Source: Candidatus Rokuibacteriota bacterium (GTDB lineage Bacteria > Methylomirabilota > Methylomirabilia > Rokubacteriales > CSP1-6). From it: a DNA stretch of 64,000 nucleotides. Both the position numbers and the translations under genes were made by a program. The notes under the pieces were generated by a model. That model ran no database searches. It saw only the letters and a program-made list of their open reading frames with translations, and was not told the origin of the DNA. Position 1 is the first letter of the stretch. Each line of letters starts with the position of its first letter. Positions 42,537 through 59,401 of the stretch are shown piece by piece. The stretch spans positions 1,041 through 65,040 of the forward strand of contig QHSV01000236.1 in assembly GCA_003221655.1 (NCBI GenBank). The letters run 5' to 3'.

Positions 42537-44267
42537 CTAGTCAATCCGGGTGCCGAGCGTCGCCAGCGTCGCGTGTGCTTCGCCGTCTCTCAGATAGAGC
42601 ACCGAGACGATGTCCCCGGCCCGGCGGGCGCGGACCAGGCTTCGAAGATCTTCGAGCCCGTCGACGGGAGTCCCGCCGAGGCGGACGATCACGTCGCCAT
42701 CGCGCAGGCCCGCCTGCGCGGCCGCTGTTCCGGGGAGGACGCTCGAGAGCCGAAGACCATCGGCCCCCGGGCGGGGCAGGGCGACGATGCCGAGGAACGC
42801 GCCGCCGGGAGTGCCGACCTGGCGCCGGCTCGGCGGCGGAACCTTCGCGTAGACCGGACGGGCATCCGTCGCGAGACGCTCGATGACGCGTACGGCAACG
42901 GCGGCGACGCGAGCCATGCCGGCCGCGTCGATCTTGTCCGCGGTATCGGTCGGACGGTGGTAGTCCTCGTGGCCCCCGGTGTGGAAGAACAGGACCGGGA
43001 CCCCGGCGTCGTAGAACCGGGTGTGGTCGGAGGGCCCGTGCGGCGAGCCCTGGAGGTCGGCCGTGATCCCTTCCTTCTGTGCCGCCTCGCTCACGAGCGC
43101 CCGCAGCCCGCTGCCGCTGTCGCCGCCGCCCACGTTGAGGCGGCGGGTCCGGAGCCGGCCGACCATGTCGAAGTTCAGCATCGCGACGGTCCGCGTGAGC
43201 GGCACCACCGGCCGGCCCACGTAGTGACGCGAGCCGATCAGGCCCAGCTCTTCGGCGCCGAACAGCGCGACGACGAGCGTGCGGCGCATCCCGCCGGCCG
43301 CCGCGAACGCGCGCGCCAGGCCGAGGGCCACGGCCGTGCCGGAGGCGTTGTCATCCGCGCCGGGGTGGACGACGCCATCGACGCGACCGAGATGATCGTA
43401 GTGCGCGCCGATGACGACGGCTTCGTCGGCGAGCGCCGGGTCGGCGCCGGGCAGGATGCCCACAACGTTCATGCCGCGGACTTCGTCGGACACGATGTCG
43501 ACCCGAATCCGCGCGCGCGCGCCCGTCGCGAATGGCCCGGGCGCGTGCGCCGCGACGAGGGCATTCGCCGCCTCGGTCGTCGTGCGGCCCGCGGCGGCCA
43601 GTACGGCGTCGGCCGCCTCGCGCGTGAGCGCCCCGGACACGAGACCGACTCGGACCGCCGTCGTGTCCGGTGACGGCAGATCGGGACCCGCGAGCAGCAG
43701 TGCGAGGGCCCCGCGGCGCTTCGCCGCGATCAGCTTGTCGAGGCGGCTCACTCGCGCTCCAGCCGGGTGGACCGGCGCCCCGTCCAGCGCGAGCGCGACC
43801 TTGCCGCGGACGTCCACCCCTGCATAATCGTCGTAGCCACTGTCGGGGAGGTCGGCGCCGTAGCCCACGAAGACGACGTCACCGGTGACCTCGCCGCCGA
43901 GCGAGCCGCCGTGCGGGATCCAGTCGCGTCCGAGCTCGAGCCGCCGCGGGGCCGGGCCGGACAGCTCCAGTGCGCTCGCCGGGCCGCCGTGCGACGAGGT
44001 CTCGAGGACGAACGTCTGGAGGAACGATCCCTGGTCGCCGCCCGGACGGAGCCCGGCGGCGGCCAGCGCGTCGGCGATCTGCCGCGCGGCGCGATCGCCG
44101 CCGGCGGTACCCGATCGCCGACCCTCCATCTCGGGCGCGGTCAGCGCGCTCACGGCCTCGGCCAGCTGCTCCGCGGACGGCGGGACGACAGCGGCCCGCG
44201 CGAATACACCGGTCGCCCCGAGCAACAGGGACACCGCCAAGAAGAGAAGCACGCGAGGGCGAGTCAC
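42537..44267 (-). CDS. Secreted M28-family metallopeptidase (aminopeptidase) with a PA domain and a C-terminal PDZ domain.
   Basis: 576 aa. Signal peptide. M28 zinc-ligand region (HYDHLGR..., DDNASGTA, EELGLIGS). C-terminal PDZ-like segment. Confidence 0.75.
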   Translation of the reverse strand: MTRPRVLLFLAVSLLLGATGVFARAAVVPPSAEQLAEAVSALTAPEMEGRRSGTAGGDRAARQIADALAAAGLRPGGDQGSFLQTFVLETSSHGGPASALELSGPAPRRLELGRDWIPHGGSLGGEVTGDVVFVGYGADLPDSGYDDYAGVDVRGKVALALDGAPVHPAGARVSRLDKLIAAKRRGALALLLAGPDLPSPDTTAVRVGLVSGALTREAADAVLAAAGRTTTEAANALVAAHAPGPFATGARARIRVDIVSDEVRGMNVVGILPGADPALADEAVVIGAHYDHLGRVDGVVHPGADDNASGTAVALGLARAFAAAGGMRRTLVVALFGAEELGLIGSRHYVGRPVVPLTRTVAMLNFDMVGRLRTRRLNVGGGDSGSGLRALVSEAAQKEGITADLQGSPHGPSDHTRFYDAGVPVLFFHTGGHEDYHRPTDTADKIDAAGMARVAAVAVRVIERLATDARPVYAKVPPPSRRQVGTPGGAFLGIVALPRPGADGLRLSSVLPGTAAAQAGLRDGDVIVRLGGTPVDGLEDLRSLVRARRAGDIVSVLYLRDGEAHATLATLGTRID

Positions 44268-44297: not shown

Positions 44298-44804
44298 TTA
44301 TGCCGCTCGCGACTTGACGGAAGCCACTCGGCCACCGGTCATCTGCACGAGGTCGGCGGGCGTCAGCTTGAAGACCGTATTCGGATGACCGCCCGCCGCC
44401 CAGATCTCCGGCCACTGCATCAGATCCTCGTCGATCAGGATCGTCAGCGGCTCGGCATGCGCGACGGGAGCGACGCCGCCGATCGCGAAGCCCGTCCGGG
44501 CCCGCACGAAGTCGGCGTCGGCCCGCGCCACGGGTTCGGCGACCAGCCCGGCCACCCTACGCTCGTCGACGCGGTTCGCGCCGCTCGTGATGACCAGGAC
44601 CGCGCCCTGGGTGTTCTCGCCGCGGAAGACCAGTGACTTCGCGATCTGGTCGACACGGCAGCCGACCGCGCGCGCGGCTTCGGCCGAGGTCCGCGCGGAC
44701 TGCTCGAGGGCGACCACGGTGTGGCCGCCGCCCGCGGCGGCGAGGACGTCCTGAACCCGCCGGACGCTCGGGCCTAGCATCGGGTCCGTCCCTTCATCCG
44801 CCAT
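44298..44804 (-). CDS. YbaK/ProX-type aminoacyl-tRNA deacylase domain protein.
   Basis: 168 aa. YbaK-like sequence. Its start overlaps the upstream stop (TGATG). Confidence 0.75.
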   Translation of the reverse strand: MADEGTDPMLGPSVRRVQDVLAAAGGGHTVVALEQSARTSAEAARAVGCRVDQIAKSLVFRGENTQGAVLVITSGANRVDERRVAGLVAEPVARADADFVRARTGFAIGGVAPVAHAEPLTILIDEDLMQWPEIWAAGGHPNTVFKLTPADLVQMTGGRVASVKSRAA

Positions 44805-45538
44805 CAGAGACCGCGGACGGCTCGCGAAACCTCGCCGGGCTCCGGCCTCACCTGAATGCTGTCGGCCAGCGAGAGCCAGCGGACGATCCCCTGCCGGTCG
44901 ATGACGACCGTCGTCGGTCTCGGGACATCCTGCCCTTTATTCCCGCCGCGGGCGTGCACGAGACCGTAGCGCCGCGTCACCGTCAGGTCGCGGTCCGTGA
45001 GGAAGCGGTAGCGCGCCCGAAGCCGCTCGGCGAGCGCCTGGCTCCGCTCGTTCGAGTCGGGACTGATGGCCAGAATTTGCACACCGGCGTCGCCGAGCTC
45101 CGTGAGGACAGCTCCAAGCCCTTGGAGCTCCGAGACGCAGAAGGGTCACCAGTAGCCGCGGTAGAAGACGAGGACGACCGGCGTCCGGTCGCGAAAGGAC
45201 GCGAGGGTGACCGGGGCGCCCGCCGCGTCCGGCAGCGTGAAGTCGGGCGCAGGTTCGCCGACGTGAAGGGCAGGCGCCGTCGTCGGGATCCTCGCGAGCG
45301 CGAAGTTGAAGTAGCCGCCGAGCACGAGCAAGGCCGCCGAGAACACGAGGGCCGCGAGGTTTGGCCAGCGCGCGGCCCGCCACGAGGCAAGCGCCGCGAT
45401 CGCTGTCGCCAGGGCGAAGGCCGTGAGGTAGAGCGCCGGATGGTTGCGGATGACGGGCACCCGCAACAGGGAGACGTAGCCGGCGACGGCGCCGAGCGAG
45501 AGGGCGACGCTCAGAAGCGCCGGCCAGTACCTCGTCAT
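44804..45538 (-). CDS. Candidate selenoprotein: membrane-anchored peroxiredoxin-like (PRX_like2/redoxin) thiol-disulfide oxidoreductase, with an in-frame UGA (plus 45146-45148) at the first position of a U-P-F-C redox motif.
   Basis: ATG 45538 overlaps the LmbE stop (ATGA). Three N-terminal TM segments, then ...APDFTLPDAAGAPVTLASFRDRTPVVLVFYRGYW-TGA-PFCVSELQGLGAVLTELGDAGVQILAISPDS... in a single frame. ORFs 45146..45730 and 44804..45082 are in the same frame and separated only by this TGA. Confidence 0.6.
45108..45131 (-). other. SECIS-like mRNA hairpin downstream of the UGA of the Prx-like gene.
   Basis: mRNA GGAGCUCCAAG-GG-CUUGGAGCU: 8-9 bp stem with a G-rich apical loop, starting 15-17 nt after the UGA. 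Confidence 0.45.
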
Positions 45539-46233
45539 CGCCCGAGGACGACCCGGTCGAACGTCTCCGCGTACCCGTAGCCCTTCGACTTGCCGAGCTC
45601 GGCCGAGCGCTCGCGCACGCGCTTCTCGACGGCCGGGAAGTCGGCGAACTGACTCGCGTGGCAGGCCAGAGCCTTGAGCTTCAGATCCATGACGTCGGAG
45701 ATATCGACCACGAGGTGCGGGTTCTCCCACTGCATGAGATGGATCTCGAGCACTTTGTGGGGCTCGTAGTCGGGCATGAGCTCCGGAAACGCCAGGTGGT
45801 CGCGGGCGAGCGGGTACACGCAGTCGAGGGCGACCCCCGCGGTGATCCGGTGGTCGCGGTGGGAGCCGCCGAGGTTGTAGCTACGTTGCGGGTTCATGGC
45901 GATGACGAGGTCCGGGCGCCAGCAGCGGATCTGTCGGGTGACATCACACCGGAGCTCGCGCGTGTCCTCGACCTCGCAGTCGGGATAGCCGAGGAACTCG
46001 ACTCGCGCGACGCCGAGCGTGCGGGCGGCGTTTCGCTGCTCCGCCTCGCGGATCAGGGCCAGGCGCTCGGATGTCATCGTGCGATCGCCCGAGCCCTTGT
46101 CGCCGTTGGTCACGATCACGTACGTGACCTCGCAGCCCTCCTTGACCAGCTTGGCGATGGTCCCGCCGGCCCCGAACTCGGAATCGTCAGGGTGCGCCGT
46201 CACCACCATGACGCGCTCGATCTTCTCGGCCAA
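45535..46233 (-). CDS. PIG-L/LmbE-family N-acetylglucosaminyl deacetylase (MshB/BshB-like).
   Basis: 232 aa. VMVVTAHPDDSEFGAGGT N-terminal motif of LmbE-like deacetylases. Confidence 0.8.
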   Translation of the reverse strand: MAEKIERVMVVTAHPDDSEFGAGGTIAKLVKEGCEVTYVIVTNGDKGSGDRTMTSERLALIREAEQRNAARTLGVARVEFLGYPDCEVEDTRELRCDVTRQIRCWRPDLVIAMNPQRSYNLGGSHRDHRITAGVALDCVYPLARDHLAFPELMPDYEPHKVLEIHLMQWENPHLVVDISDVMDLKLKALACHASQFADFPAVEKRVRERSAELGKSKGYGYAETFDRVVLGR

Positions 46234-46244
46234 AAGAGTCTCCT

Positions 46245-46389
46245 TTGTAGCGGGGGCCGTGAGGCCGGATCGGATCGGGGGTGGCCTGACATAGGCGCGA
46301 CCCGGCTCCGTGGCGCCCGCTCAACCGTTAGCTCAACCGTCAAAGGTCGTAGGCGCGACCGGGCTCCGCGGCGCCCGCTCGACCGTTAG
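46245..46389 (+). repeat. Copy B of the dispersed intergenic repeat family. Its 3' half is tandemly duplicated (46291-46331 and 46351-46389).
   Basis: ttgtagcgggggccgtgaggccggatcggatcgggggtggcctgac...gcgacccggctccgtggcgcccgctcaaccgttag, then a second copy aggcgcgaccgggctccgcggcgcccgctcgaccgttag. Confidence 0.7.
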
Positions 46390-46447
46390 AGGTTCTTTAC
46401 CAGCATACCGATTCTGGGCGTGGGGGGCGAACGGCTATAATTGCGTG

Positions 46448-48094
46448 ATGTCGATCGCCGCCCCGCGCCGGGTGGGGATCGCGGGCTTGCTCGGGCTCCT
46501 CGCCGGCGCGATCGTCCTGATGCCGGCGCCCGGGAATCCAGGGGCTCTCAGGCTCGCCGGAGTAGGCCTGCTCTGGTGGTACGCGGCTCTCGCCGCGCCA
46601 CTCGCCGCAGTCCTTCTGGTGATCGTCGTTCGGTGTGCGTCTCCCGAGGCTGGAACCGCAGGTGGCTCGGCCGCCCTCGCGGCGTGGACGTCACCGGTGG
46701 TCCTCGCCCTCGTGGCCGCACGCGTTTTCTCGGGGGCGCCGGAGGCGCCGACGATCGCGCTCGCCATCCTCGTGGCCCCGCTGATCGCGCTGCTTTATCC
46801 GGCCACGGACGCAGCGCAGCGACCGAACCGCGTCGCGGCGCTGGGGATCAGCGCCGGCGTCGGATTGGTCCTTTGGGCGAATCTCCTCCTGCTCGCGGAC
46901 GTCGCCGGCTTGCTGGGTCTCCCTCGCTGGGCGACGAGCATCGTCGCGGCATGCGTGGCCCTTCTGGCCGTCGCACTGCTGCGTGGCGACTCCGGCCTCT
47001 GGCTCCTATACGTGAGCGGCCTGGGGTTCGTGGCGTTGGTCACGGTCGTCGCCGTCGCTCTCGCCGCCTCTCCCTGGGGCGCCTGGAAGGACGTCGCGTC
47101 GCGGCCTGCGCTCACGTTCGGAGCGCGCAATCCGTGGGTGACCGAGGGCCGGACGCTAGCCGCGCCGACGACGCTCGAGTTCACGGAGGCTCATCGCGTT
47201 ACGGCGCTGAGCCCCGCCACCTATCGCGTCCTCGAGCCCGGCCGGTTCCGCGAGTGGCGGCTTCGCGCCGGCGAATCGCTGTCGCTCCGGGCAGGCGATC
47301 ATCTGGTGATCGGCGCCGGAGCGCGTTTGATGTTCGAGGCCGGAAAGCGGGTCCCGGGGGCGGCCGCCTCGGGTGCCACGTGGGCCGACCCGCCGGAGCG
47401 GAGCGGACTTTCGACGGTCGTGCATTCGCTGGGCGCCGCGCTCACGCTGGTCGGTGGCGCCGTCGCCCTCGTCGTACCCGAGCGGGCGCTGACGATCCGG
47501 GCTGTCTCCACGGGGTCAGGGCTCGTGCTGGCGTTCGTGCTCGGGGCCCTCTGCCTCGGCGTTTACGGGGCCTACTCGGCCTCCTGGCTCTCCATCGGCG
47601 CGCCCGCGCTCGCGGCCGTCTTCAGCGTCCCGGATGCTGTCGTCCCCGGACGGGCGGGCAGCGCCGTGGCGGTGCTGAGCGCCGTCGTGCTGCTCCTTCT
47701 CCTCTCGGCAACTGTGCTGGCGCTGCGGGGCGTCCTCGGCCGAGCGTGGGGTGAAGCGAGGACCGCGCTGACGGACCCCACCATGGCATTCCTCGTCGTC
47801 GCCGCCTCCATCGGCAGCCTGTGGCCGGGCGACGCATCGCGAGCCCTCCTGGCCGGACTCGGGCTGACCGCGTCGGCCGCCGTCGCGCCCCGTGTCGCGG
47901 GCGACAGCCCGGAGGCCCGGCTGGCGGGTTCGCTGGTCGGCGTGATCGCGTTCGCCGGTCTCTCCGTGCTCGGGCCGCGCCTGCCGGCGTGGGCCGACAT
48001 TGTGTGGACATACCCCGCGCTGGCCGCGGCGCCCCTCGCATGGGTGGTAGTGCGAGCGGAGACCGTGCGACGGGCGAGGCGAGCACTTCAATGA
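46448..48094 (+). CDS. Polytopic integral membrane protein, function unknown (Ala/Leu/Gly-rich, about 12 or more TM segments).
   Basis: ATG at 46448. 548 aa of mostly hydrophobic sequence. No recognisable motif. Confidence 0.5.
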
Positions 48095-58621: not shown

Positions 58622-59401
58622 ATGACTAGTCAGGAAGCGGCTCGAGGTTCCGGAACGGTGGTCAAGCTCTTCTACCGGCCGGGTTGATCGTCCTGCGCCA
58701 AGACGAAGGAGCTCCTCTCGTCTTGGGGGGTCGAGTTCGACCCGGTCGACGTGCAGGCGAACCCGGCCGGCTACGCCGAGCTGGCGCGGCTGGGGATAGG
58801 CCGCGTGCCGGCGGTGACCGTCGGCGACCGCGCCGCGCACGGGTGGAACCCACCGGCATACGCCGCGCTGCTCGGCATCCCGTACTCGGCGGACATCAAG
58901 CTTGCCCCGACCGAGCTGGCCAAGCGGCTCGACATCATCCTCGATGCGACGCAGGGGCTCATTCGCGGCGTGCCGGATCAACACATGGACTGGCGGCCGC
59001 CGGAGCGCGATCGGACCCTGCGTAACCTCGGCTATCATGTGTTCCGGCTCTCGCTGGCATTCGTGGACGGTATGGACCTCGGCGAGTTCCCGGCGTCCTG
59101 GCTGCTGGACCAGGCGCCCGCCGATCTTCGCGACGGGCCGGCCATCGCGCGCTATGGCGCCCTCGTGCGCGGACGCATCACCGGGTGGTTCGAGGGGGCA
59201 TCGCCCCGCGAGTTCGAGCGCGTGATCAAGGTCTACTATGGCCCCCAGTCGGGCCACGCCCTGCTCGAGCGCACGACGTGGCACGCCGCGCAGCACCTGC
59301 GCCAGCTCTACGCCCTGGCCGAGCGCCTTGCGATCACGCCGCCGGGACCGATGCCGACCGACGCGTTCGTGGGACTGCCCCTTCCCGACGCTCTCTGGTG
59401 A
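58622..59401 (+). CDS. Candidate selenoprotein: glutaredoxin-like thioredoxin-fold domain (U-S-S-C, UGA at 58685-58687) fused to a DinB_2/YfiT-like metal-binding four-helix-bundle domain.
   Basis: ATG 58622 with GAGGAG 7 nt upstream. One frame reads VVKLFYRPG-TGA-SSCAKTKELLSSWGVEFDPVDVQANPAGYAELARLGIGRVPAVTVGDRAAHGWN.... The frame continues through DinB-like His motifs (QHMDW, GYHVF, TWHAAQHLRQL) to the stop at 59399-59401. 259 aa including Sec. Confidence 0.6.
58698..58726 (+). other. SECIS-like mRNA hairpin 10 nt downstream of the UGA of the Grx-DinB gene.
   Basis: Perfect 9-bp stem CCAAGACGA/UCGUCUUGG enclosing the loop AGGAGCUCCUC (contains GG). Its spacing from the UGA matches bacterial SECIS geometry. 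Confidence 0.5.

Follow-up and report, generated by a model that had tools for sequence, protein, structure and literature searches.

A stretch of 64,000 nt from a Candidatus Rokuibacteriota contig (QHSV01000236.1), hereafter the window, to whose positions all coordinates refer, carries on its minus strand two open reading frames (ORFs) in one and the same frame, parted by a single TGA at 45148-45146 in the middle of what reads as a redoxin gene. The question is whether ribosomes stop at this triplet or decode it as selenocysteine (Sec) and, if the latter, what sort of enzyme results and on which side of the membrane it works. The in-frame TGA is almost certainly a real Sec codon, and from the sequences compared we hold with very high confidence that the two ORFs form one selenoprotein gene with a functional-looking selenocysteine insertion sequence (SECIS). 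The explanation which as a whole fits best, and which is regarded as highly probable, is a 244-residue membrane-anchored selenoprotein that would act as an oxidoreductase of the ResA/TlpA/CcmG kind.

The interrupted redoxin frame and its homologues

Between the ATG and the terminal TGA of the frame (Table 1) the TGA in question is the sole interruption, the translation around it being ...VVLVFYRGYW-*-PFCVSELQGLGAVLTELGDAGVQILAISPDS.... Read through, the 244-residue product has three hydrophobic stretches followed by ...APDFTLPDAAGAPVTLASFRDRTPVVLVFYRGYW-U-PFCVSELQGLGAV...ILAISPDS..., and with Cys put for the stop a single Pfam domain runs across it: AhpC-TSA with an E value of 2.7e-31 (PF00578 score 108.5 bits against a gathering cut-off of 26) and Redoxin with 4.2e-23. 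The initial annotation had proposed just such an arrangement, i.e. one minus-strand frame, three N-terminal transmembrane (TM) helices and a UGA in place of the first Cys of the WCPxC motif of a redoxin fold, and each of these points is borne out, the helices by hydropathy and the UGA by its alignment with the first Cys of W-C-P-[FY]-C. The alignment to homologues L001-L004 starts at residue 1 of the gene product. TGA is otherwise a normal stop here, ending both the redoxin gene itself and the LmbE gene upstream, and when the whole window was screened for TGA codons flanked on either side by an open frame with strong coding signal, the only hits besides this site were three ordinary gene boundaries. 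(The screen used a 50-codon filter and missed a glutaredoxin-DinB candidate, dealt with below, whose N-terminal part is shorter.)

A search of 5.8 billion proteins yielded 346 homologues, most of the close ones being 134-154 residues long and consisting of the N-terminal half alone. Among the 120 that were listed, 86 end exactly at ...RG[YSA]W, the close ones at ...VVLVFYRGYW, and gene callers yield ORF pairs of 134 and 110 residues; distant homologues are full-length and read FYRG[YNS]W-C-P-[FY]-C. At the DNA level, a scan of 156 loci from two collections, GTDB genomes and Joint Genome Institute (JGI) metagenomes, found the homologous codon to be TGA in 86, TGC in nine and TGT in one. The TGA forms span dozens of independent assemblies, more than 40 in number, and occur in Rokuibacteriota, Acidobacteriota/Blastocatellia, Gemmatimonadota/Longimicrobiales and Planctomycetaceae. 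One contig (L077) encodes a protein 100% identical to that of the window, and the best genome match (L001, 96% identity, assembly JAHFDK01) is a Candidatus Rokuibacteriota metagenome-assembled genome (MAG) from groundwater. From codon +13 to codon +40 after the TGA, variation is mainly synonymous. Alignment to Cys homologues, proposed at the outset as a check, places Cys at the UGA position, a Sec/Cys pair, and each Cys form (P0014, P0051, P0056, P0064) is one full-length protein; homologues with the two halves as naturally separate genes, which were to have spoken against the proposal, were not seen. The recurrence of the same TGA across assemblies and the full length of the Cys forms exclude a sequencing error, a pseudogene or a natural split into two genes.

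Individual database entries depart from this pattern in ways of their own. Two JGI-predicted proteins (P0070 and P0102) read FYRG[YQ]W-W-P[FY]C, Trp standing where Sec or Cys is otherwise found, which could be due to translation of TGA under code 4 or to a true TGG codon. In another (P0021) the first ~108 residues of an LmbE-like protein are joined directly to the TM-redoxin N-terminal half, suggesting a deletion or an assembly chimera, and a further one (P0001) continues beyond the Sec codon in a shifted frame; from the latter two it is evident that the locus confuses gene callers. In metagenome contigs L127-L132 there are two TGA-containing redoxin paralogues on the same strand ~1.46 kb apart (e.g. 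at 1678 and 3139 of L127), with the motifs IYRAHW-U-PYCKQQLAAF and VFYRGHW-U-PYCTAQLGKL; these pairs appear to be tandem selenoprotein genes.

The hairpin 3′ of the UGA and the capacity to decode it

An 8-bp stem starts 16 nt after the UGA and carries a tetraloop 24 nt after it, with a calculated energy of -10.7 to -11.9 kcal/mol that varies with the flank scored. The consensus bacterial SECIS (bSECIS) model quoted in a 2026 review (PMC13188914) has a loop of 3-9 nt with G at the first two loop positions, a stem of 4-16 bp, a spacing of 16-37 nt and an energy no higher than -7.5 kcal/mol, and the redoxin hairpin satisfies all of these constraints (8 bp, GGGC, 24 nt, -10.7 kcal/mol). The hairpin drawn in the initial annotation is real and does lie downstream of the UGA, but the 2-nt GG loop given to it is sterically impossible, the true loop being the GGGC tetraloop; SECIS prediction after the UGA on the minus strand, recommended there, finds the compliant 8-bp form.

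The case for a selected element is strongest in the comparison of sequences. Among 43 unique Rokubacteria-type sequences, synonymous variation is zero at +7 CTC, +8 CAA, +10 CTT and +11 GGA while flanking codons do vary, and the third base of the Gly codon in the loop, +9, is free (A, G, T or C). Within the window, CAA makes up 9% of Gln codons, CTT 3% of Leu codons and GGA 8% of Gly codons. The same 20 nt are retained in three-TM Sec forms at 51-63% protein identity (L157 and L158, the latter at 51%). A three-TM Cys form (L160, encoding P0014) has a near-identical peptide, S-E-L-K-G-L-G, specified by the common codons GAA CUC AAG GGG CUC GGC, and no hairpin. Three of the five distinct Cys-form peptides (accounting for 5 of the 9 Cys loci) are without a hairpin even at a relaxed threshold, and one has a weak 4-bp stem.

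Other Sec clades have stems of their own at the same place, namely UCAGCUU/AAGCUGA, UCAGCUC/GAGCUGA, CUCAGCUG/CAGCUGAG, GCAACUC/GAGUUGC and UCGAGCUG/CAGCUCGA, with loops that are GGN or GUN. RNAalifold on 11 other-clade sequences gives a 7-bp helix at nt 18-34, four of whose seven pairs show compensatory double changes; the paired fraction of its cells is 96%, a value that none of 500 shuffles reaches (82% in shuffles), and sliding the partners leaves 43% at most. Judged by this pattern, the hairpin is under selection at the RNA level. A competing 66-nt minimum-energy fold, in which GGAGCUC pairs with downstream Thr-Glu-Leu codons, was rejected, the Leu +17 codon varying freely among homologues; what is conserved is the local hairpin. 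A familiar point of reference is the SECIS of Escherichia coli fdhF, likewise a hairpin within coding sequence just after its UGA with a small apical loop beginning GG (GGUC there, GGNC in the redoxin gene). By comparison, the redoxin loop, 24 nt from the UGA, is a few nt further away, its third base may be G, A, C or U, and no bulged U was identified in the hairpin.

Several results weigh against reading the element as a SECIS or the organism as one that makes Sec. One Cys form (L015/L148) also has a hairpin compliant with the model, so the Q-L-x-x-L peptide itself partly predisposes to the stem. Folding energy is not exceptional with respect to synonymously recoded versions (p = 0.10 for 63 nt, 0.22 for the local region); as GC-rich sequence folds anyway, the SECIS argument rests on the site-specific codon conservation. 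Rfam gave no match at the gathering threshold across the whole window, nor at E values up to 10 for 44900-45300, a null from which nothing follows, Rfam covering bacterial SECIS elements poorly. Neither tRNA-Sec nor selA, selB or selD is present in the 64 kb, searches for SelB- and SelD-like motifs included, which is a weak test, and ARAGORN on 1.14 Mb of related loci, again a weak test, found no tRNA-Sec.

Bearing on the lineage more broadly, Rokubacteria are placed within Methylomirabilota by GTDB. A second candidate in the window itself, on the plus strand (58622-59401), is a glutaredoxin-DinB_2 gene with a TGA at 58685-58687 in VKLFYRPG-U-SSC; its Pfam matches are Glutaredoxin (4.3e-11) and DinB_2 (4.9e-07), and the NCBIfam ‘Uxx-star’ models of glutaredoxin-like selenoproteins resemble it weakly. 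In its hairpin a lower stem of 9 bp (CCAAGACGA/UCGUCUUGG) is topped by an apical ministem of 3 bp, and the loop, AGCU, lies 22 nt after the UGA. On a Candidatus Methylomirabilota contig (L036, position 4964), the motif FWATW-U-PDC of a TlpA-like gene contains an in-frame TGA, with a 7-bp hairpin after it; by its sequence the gene encodes one more putative thiol:disulfide oxidoreductase of the Sec type within this broad lineage. For one Methylomirabilota MAG, 63 predicted selenoprotein genes are reported (Deng et al. 2026, as cited in PMC13188914), and Sec-type hydrogenases are reported in Methylomirabilota (PMC13582414). By way of the glutaredoxin-DinB gene, the L036 gene and this literature, Sec capacity in the lineage is indirectly supported.

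The two hairpins in the window were initially noted to have an octamer in common, as a hint of a lineage-specific type of SECIS. The sharing of GGAGCTCC stands, with the palindrome occurring only twice in the 64 kb (within 45110-45131 and at 58706-58713), both times inside putative SECIS regions; the lineage-specific type is unsupported. As a lineage SECIS motif GGAGCUCC was rejected, GAGCUC being the commonest Glu-Leu codon pair and the structural roles being different: the octamer is the 5′ strand of the stem in the redoxin hairpin, and apical ministem plus loop in the glutaredoxin-DinB one. From base composition ~2.6 copies of GGAGCTCC would be expected (a hand estimate), and GAGCTC occurs 60 times. 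The sharing probably follows incidentally from the Glu-Leu codons for helix 1 of the thioredoxin fold.

Chemistry, membrane side and competing explanations

Domain and Sec motif together define a selenoprotein family in prokaryotes, and those of the Prx-like thiol:disulfide oxidoreductases are pfam00578 and UxxC or UxxU (reference WP_010940744.1; PMC9312934; PMC13188914; PMC2398784), and ‘Prx-like 1’ was among the most abundant selenoproteins in the GOS (Global Ocean Sampling) survey (PMC2398784). By its PF00578 domain and UxxC motif the redoxin gene falls, as far as sequence allows assignment, in this known family. It shares with it Sec as the first residue of UxxC, the abundance of Cys homologues and the bSECIS directly downstream, and differs in its conserved three-helix anchor, in forming a Rokubacteria-centred soil and groundwater subfamily and in being annotated as two ORFs. 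Curated models are of less help, none in NCBIfam reaching its cut-off for the protein. Among selenoprotein models, the SelL-related NF040769 gives 46.5 bits against a cut-off of 120, the WAxxUGC model NF041054 30.5 against 300 and PrxU (NF040737) 28.9 against 270; ResA gives 39.9 against 170 and TlpA 29.7 against 230. The features described for PRX_like2 (cd02970) are present, i.e. CxxC on a peroxiredoxin (Prx) scaffold with the second Cys at the peroxidatic position and the other catalytic residues lacking, and two distant homologues (P0112, P0115) bear the NCBI name ‘peroxiredoxin-like family protein’.

What the enzyme does is less firmly settled than how its gene is decoded. The best PDB sequence matches are a BCP peroxiredoxin (2cx3, E 1.9e-12) and thioredoxin-family CxxC proteins (3hdc, 3ia1). 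In the alignment with BCP, FYRGYW-U-PFC stands opposite FFPAAF-S-PVC, and Cys134 falls at the position of the peroxidatic Cys. Sec131 is in place of the catalytic Thr/Ser, Arg is in place of Pro, and where BCP has its catalytic Arg there is the near-invariant Pro206. The Prx motif P...T/S..C reads R...U..C, and the catalytic motif and Arg of peroxiredoxins proper are not there. An active site of the W-C-x-x-C type is present: W130, U/C131, P132 and C134 are invariant or nearly so, and together with P206 they make up, as judged from the alignment, the signature seen in thioredoxin-like oxidoreductases, ResA, TlpA and CcmG among them. Cys134 is presumed to be the resolving residue.

Structure was approached through the AlphaFold model of the Cys homologue P0014, at 38% identity a proxy for the window protein, which tells against leaning heavily on it; its predicted local distance difference test (pLDDT) score is above 90 in most of the catalytic domain. 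A Foldseek search with it finds BCP/AhpE proteins with template-modelling scores of 0.87-0.90 (5epf, 3hjp) and ResA with 0.82-0.88, the modelled fold matching the two groups equally well.

The most serious alternative concerns chemistry: that the selenoprotein acts chiefly as an extracytoplasmic peroxidase, peroxide oxidising Sec131, as in GPx, to a selenenic acid that Cys134 would resolve. Sec is a good peroxidatic residue, as is established for GPx, the top Pfam family is AhpC-TSA, and BCP/PrxQ and AhpE are among the best sequence and structure matches, with Cys134 at their peroxidatic position. However, their catalytic Pro, Thr/Ser and Arg are Arg, Sec and Pro in the window protein, no NCBIfam peroxiredoxin model is close to its cut-off (53.9 against 140 bits), and proteins of the ResA type match the fold as well. 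With these last the window protein has in common the thioredoxin fold, W-C-x-x-C at the start of helix 1, a conserved Pro at the cis-Pro position and an N-terminal membrane anchor, and their extracytoplasmic domain would be matched too if the orientation predicted below is right; it departs from ResA, TlpA and CcmG in having Sec for the nucleophilic Cys and three TM helices instead of one, and no cytochrome-maturation genes were noted among the examined neighbours of the redoxin gene. A chiefly peroxidatic role is unlikely, if still deserving of attention, and thiol:disulfide oxidoreductase chemistry would be preferred to peroxidase chemistry by a modest measure of belief.

The second alternative concerns the membrane. 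Three TM segments are predicted by hydropathy in 81 of 86 N-terminal halves and appear as three long helices in the P0014 model; Pfam finds nothing in residues 1-92, and the anchor is without Cys. Carriers of the three-helix anchor include a Sec form from Planctomycetaceae (L019) and P0014, which is a Cys form. Counting Lys plus Arg over the three-TM forms gives means of 1.7 for the N-terminus, 1.3 for loop 1, 3.0 for loop 2 and 1.6 after the third helix, and because of this family-wide bias, loop 2 exceeding loop 1, an N-in/C-out orientation is favoured. Homologues lacking the anchor, Sec and Cys forms alike, bear signal peptides or lipoboxes. Taken by itself the window protein is ambiguous, with 3 Lys plus Arg inside and 3 outside, a neutral distribution that would equally suit an N-out/C-in orientation, the catalytic domain being cytoplasmic and cooperating with the upstream BshB-like deacetylase in a redox pathway of low-molecular-weight thiols. 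The LmbE-type protein is indeed most similar to BshB1, its overlap with the redoxin start (ATGA) suggests translational coupling, and the pairing of the two genes is kept in the clade. The family-wide charge bias and the signal peptides and lipoboxes of anchor-free homologues speak for the other orientation, and the synteny is gone in the more divergent three-TM Sec forms. A cytoplasmic domain seems decidedly improbable, and an extracytoplasmic catalytic domain is considered likely.

For an extracytoplasmic selenoprotein, the following working mode may be envisaged; the conserved UGA, the Sec/Cys pair, the domain and the selected hairpin on which it builds are shown by the sequences, and SelB dependence, topology, substrate and redox partner are what we infer. 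The hairpin in the coding sequence would recruit SelB with Sec-tRNA(Sec) at the UGA, where Sec would be inserted in place of termination. The three TM helices, most likely N-in/C-out, would position the thioredoxin-fold domain, with its W-U-P-F-C active site, outside the cytoplasmic membrane. There the selenolate of U131 may attack a disulfide, sulfenate or peroxide substrate and C134 resolve the adduct to give an intramolecular selenenylsulfide, from which a membrane or periplasmic reductant would regenerate the enzyme. The cycle would resemble that of membrane-anchored thiol:disulfide oxidoreductases of the ResA/TlpA/CcmG type, on a peroxiredoxin-like scaffold.

Two further alternatives deny Sec altogether. 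Read-through could occur by near-cognate insertion of Trp or Cys, or UGA could be reassigned across the lineage. In E. coli, termination at UGA is weak when C comes next, and the proteins with W at the Sec position (YWWPFC) would be in line with such decoding. However, TGA ends the redoxin gene and its neighbour, the screen of the window found one TGA deep inside a coding domain, the position is that of the redox-active Cys in homologues (a classic Sec/Cys pair), and plain leakiness leaves the selected hairpin unexplained, all of which makes non-Sec read-through very hard to credit. Least credible is a true stop, whether in a pseudogene or yielding a 130-residue membrane peptide plus an independently translated C-terminal fragment: automatic gene callers do annotate two ORFs, but a stop would split a single thioredoxin-fold domain in mid active site, 86 loci from several phyla share the TGA and purifying selection acts to either side of it, each Cys form is one protein, CCC TTC TGC after the TGA offers no start codon for a fragment beginning PFC, and a selected RNA hairpin lies exactly where a SECIS is expected.

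Neighbouring genes and meaning for the family

Table 1. Positions of the redoxin gene, its parts and the adjoining genes in the window
Feature	Position	Strand	Details and basis
Predicted complete selenoprotein gene	45538..44804	minus	244 codons; ATG 45538; Sec-UGA is codon 131; terminal TGA 44806-44804
In-frame UGA, almost certainly read as selenocysteine (U131)	45148..45146	minus	first position of the U-P-F-C motif
Codon TGC of Cys134, second residue of UxxC	45139..45137	minus	invariant column C134; alignment to PDB 2cx3
Putative bacterial SECIS hairpin	45129..45110	minus	stem AGCUCCAA (45129-45122) / UUGGAGCU (45117-45110); GGGC loop (45121-45118)
AhpC-TSA/Redoxin thioredoxin-fold catalytic domain, residues 93-221	45262..44876	minus	Pfam
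N-terminal anchor of three hydrophobic TM helices, residues about 5-81	45526..45296	minus	hydropathy scan; no Pfam family
PIG-L/LmbE-type deacetylase, upstream	46233..45535	minus	stop overlaps redoxin start (ATGA)
YbaK/tRNA_edit-type deacylase homologue, downstream	44804..44298	minus	start overlaps redoxin stop (TGATG)
M28 peptidase with C-terminal PDZ domain, next gene	44267..42537	minus	

Of the neighbours named in the initial annotation, an LmbE gene with an ATGA overlap, YbaK and an M28 peptidase are present (Table 1), and the overlaps at both ends of the redoxin gene suggest co-translation. The LmbE-type protein is closest to BshB1, scoring 105 bits against an NCBIfam cut-off of 182. The order LmbE-redoxin-YbaK-M28 is kept in essentially all contigs of the close clade (redoxin identity of at least 73%) that are long enough to tell; it is absent from the loci at 57-62% identity and from L157 and L158, the neighbours in divergent loci being an exonuclease/MFS pair, or PALP, Cys_Met_Meta_PP, TauE and ferredoxin/POR genes. 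As synteny stops at the close clade, the operon was rejected as a functional or family signature. Of the early remark that anchor and operon context are both unusual, what stands is a conserved anchor, the gene order being clade-specific.

In the more distant loci, PALP, Cys_Met_Meta_PP, TauE, FCSD and DsrE genes accompany L158 (in the neighbourhood examined with that of L159), and APS kinase and PALP the Cys form L160, which hints that some divergent family members may act in sulfur or thiol metabolism. Divergent from the LmbE-redoxin operon, on the plus strand at 46310-48094, is a gene for a highly hydrophobic polytopic membrane protein of 594 residues, for which there is no Pfam family at E values up to 0.001.

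A bolder extension, which we consider improbable, is that the three-TM U-P-F-C proteins form a distinct unannotated subfamily of extracytoplasmic, membrane-anchored selenoproteins in which a SECIS whose stem of 7-8 bp bears a GGNC tetraloop, frozen across ~50% protein divergence, would reflect sequence-specific SelB recognition in Rokubacteria, with functional coupling in the core clade, by way of the gene overlaps, to a BshB-like deacetylase and a YbaK-like deacylase. If true, this coupling would link selenium-based periplasmic redox to functions in low-molecular-weight thiols or in aminoacyl-tRNA quality control.

General understanding of Sec biology is unchanged by a case that, well supported as it is, is expected in kind. 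Specific to this gene are the conserved three-helix anchor, the distribution centred on soil and groundwater Rokubacteria and the lack of correct annotation. The family is systematically mis-annotated, the 86 of 120 listed homologues noted above being N-terminal fragments that end at the Sec codon and for which the NCBI name is simply ‘redoxin domain-containing protein’. It also offers a clean natural case of SECIS constraint on codon choice, with rare stem codons fixed, the loop base free and the pattern lost in a Cys form, and the locus could help to train predictors of bacterial SECIS elements and selenoproteins for high-GC uncultured phyla. Once the Sec codon is recognised, a complete and probably extracytoplasmic redox enzyme emerges, one with a wide occurrence in soil and groundwater Rokubacteria, Acidobacteriota, Gemmatimonadota and Planctomycetes.

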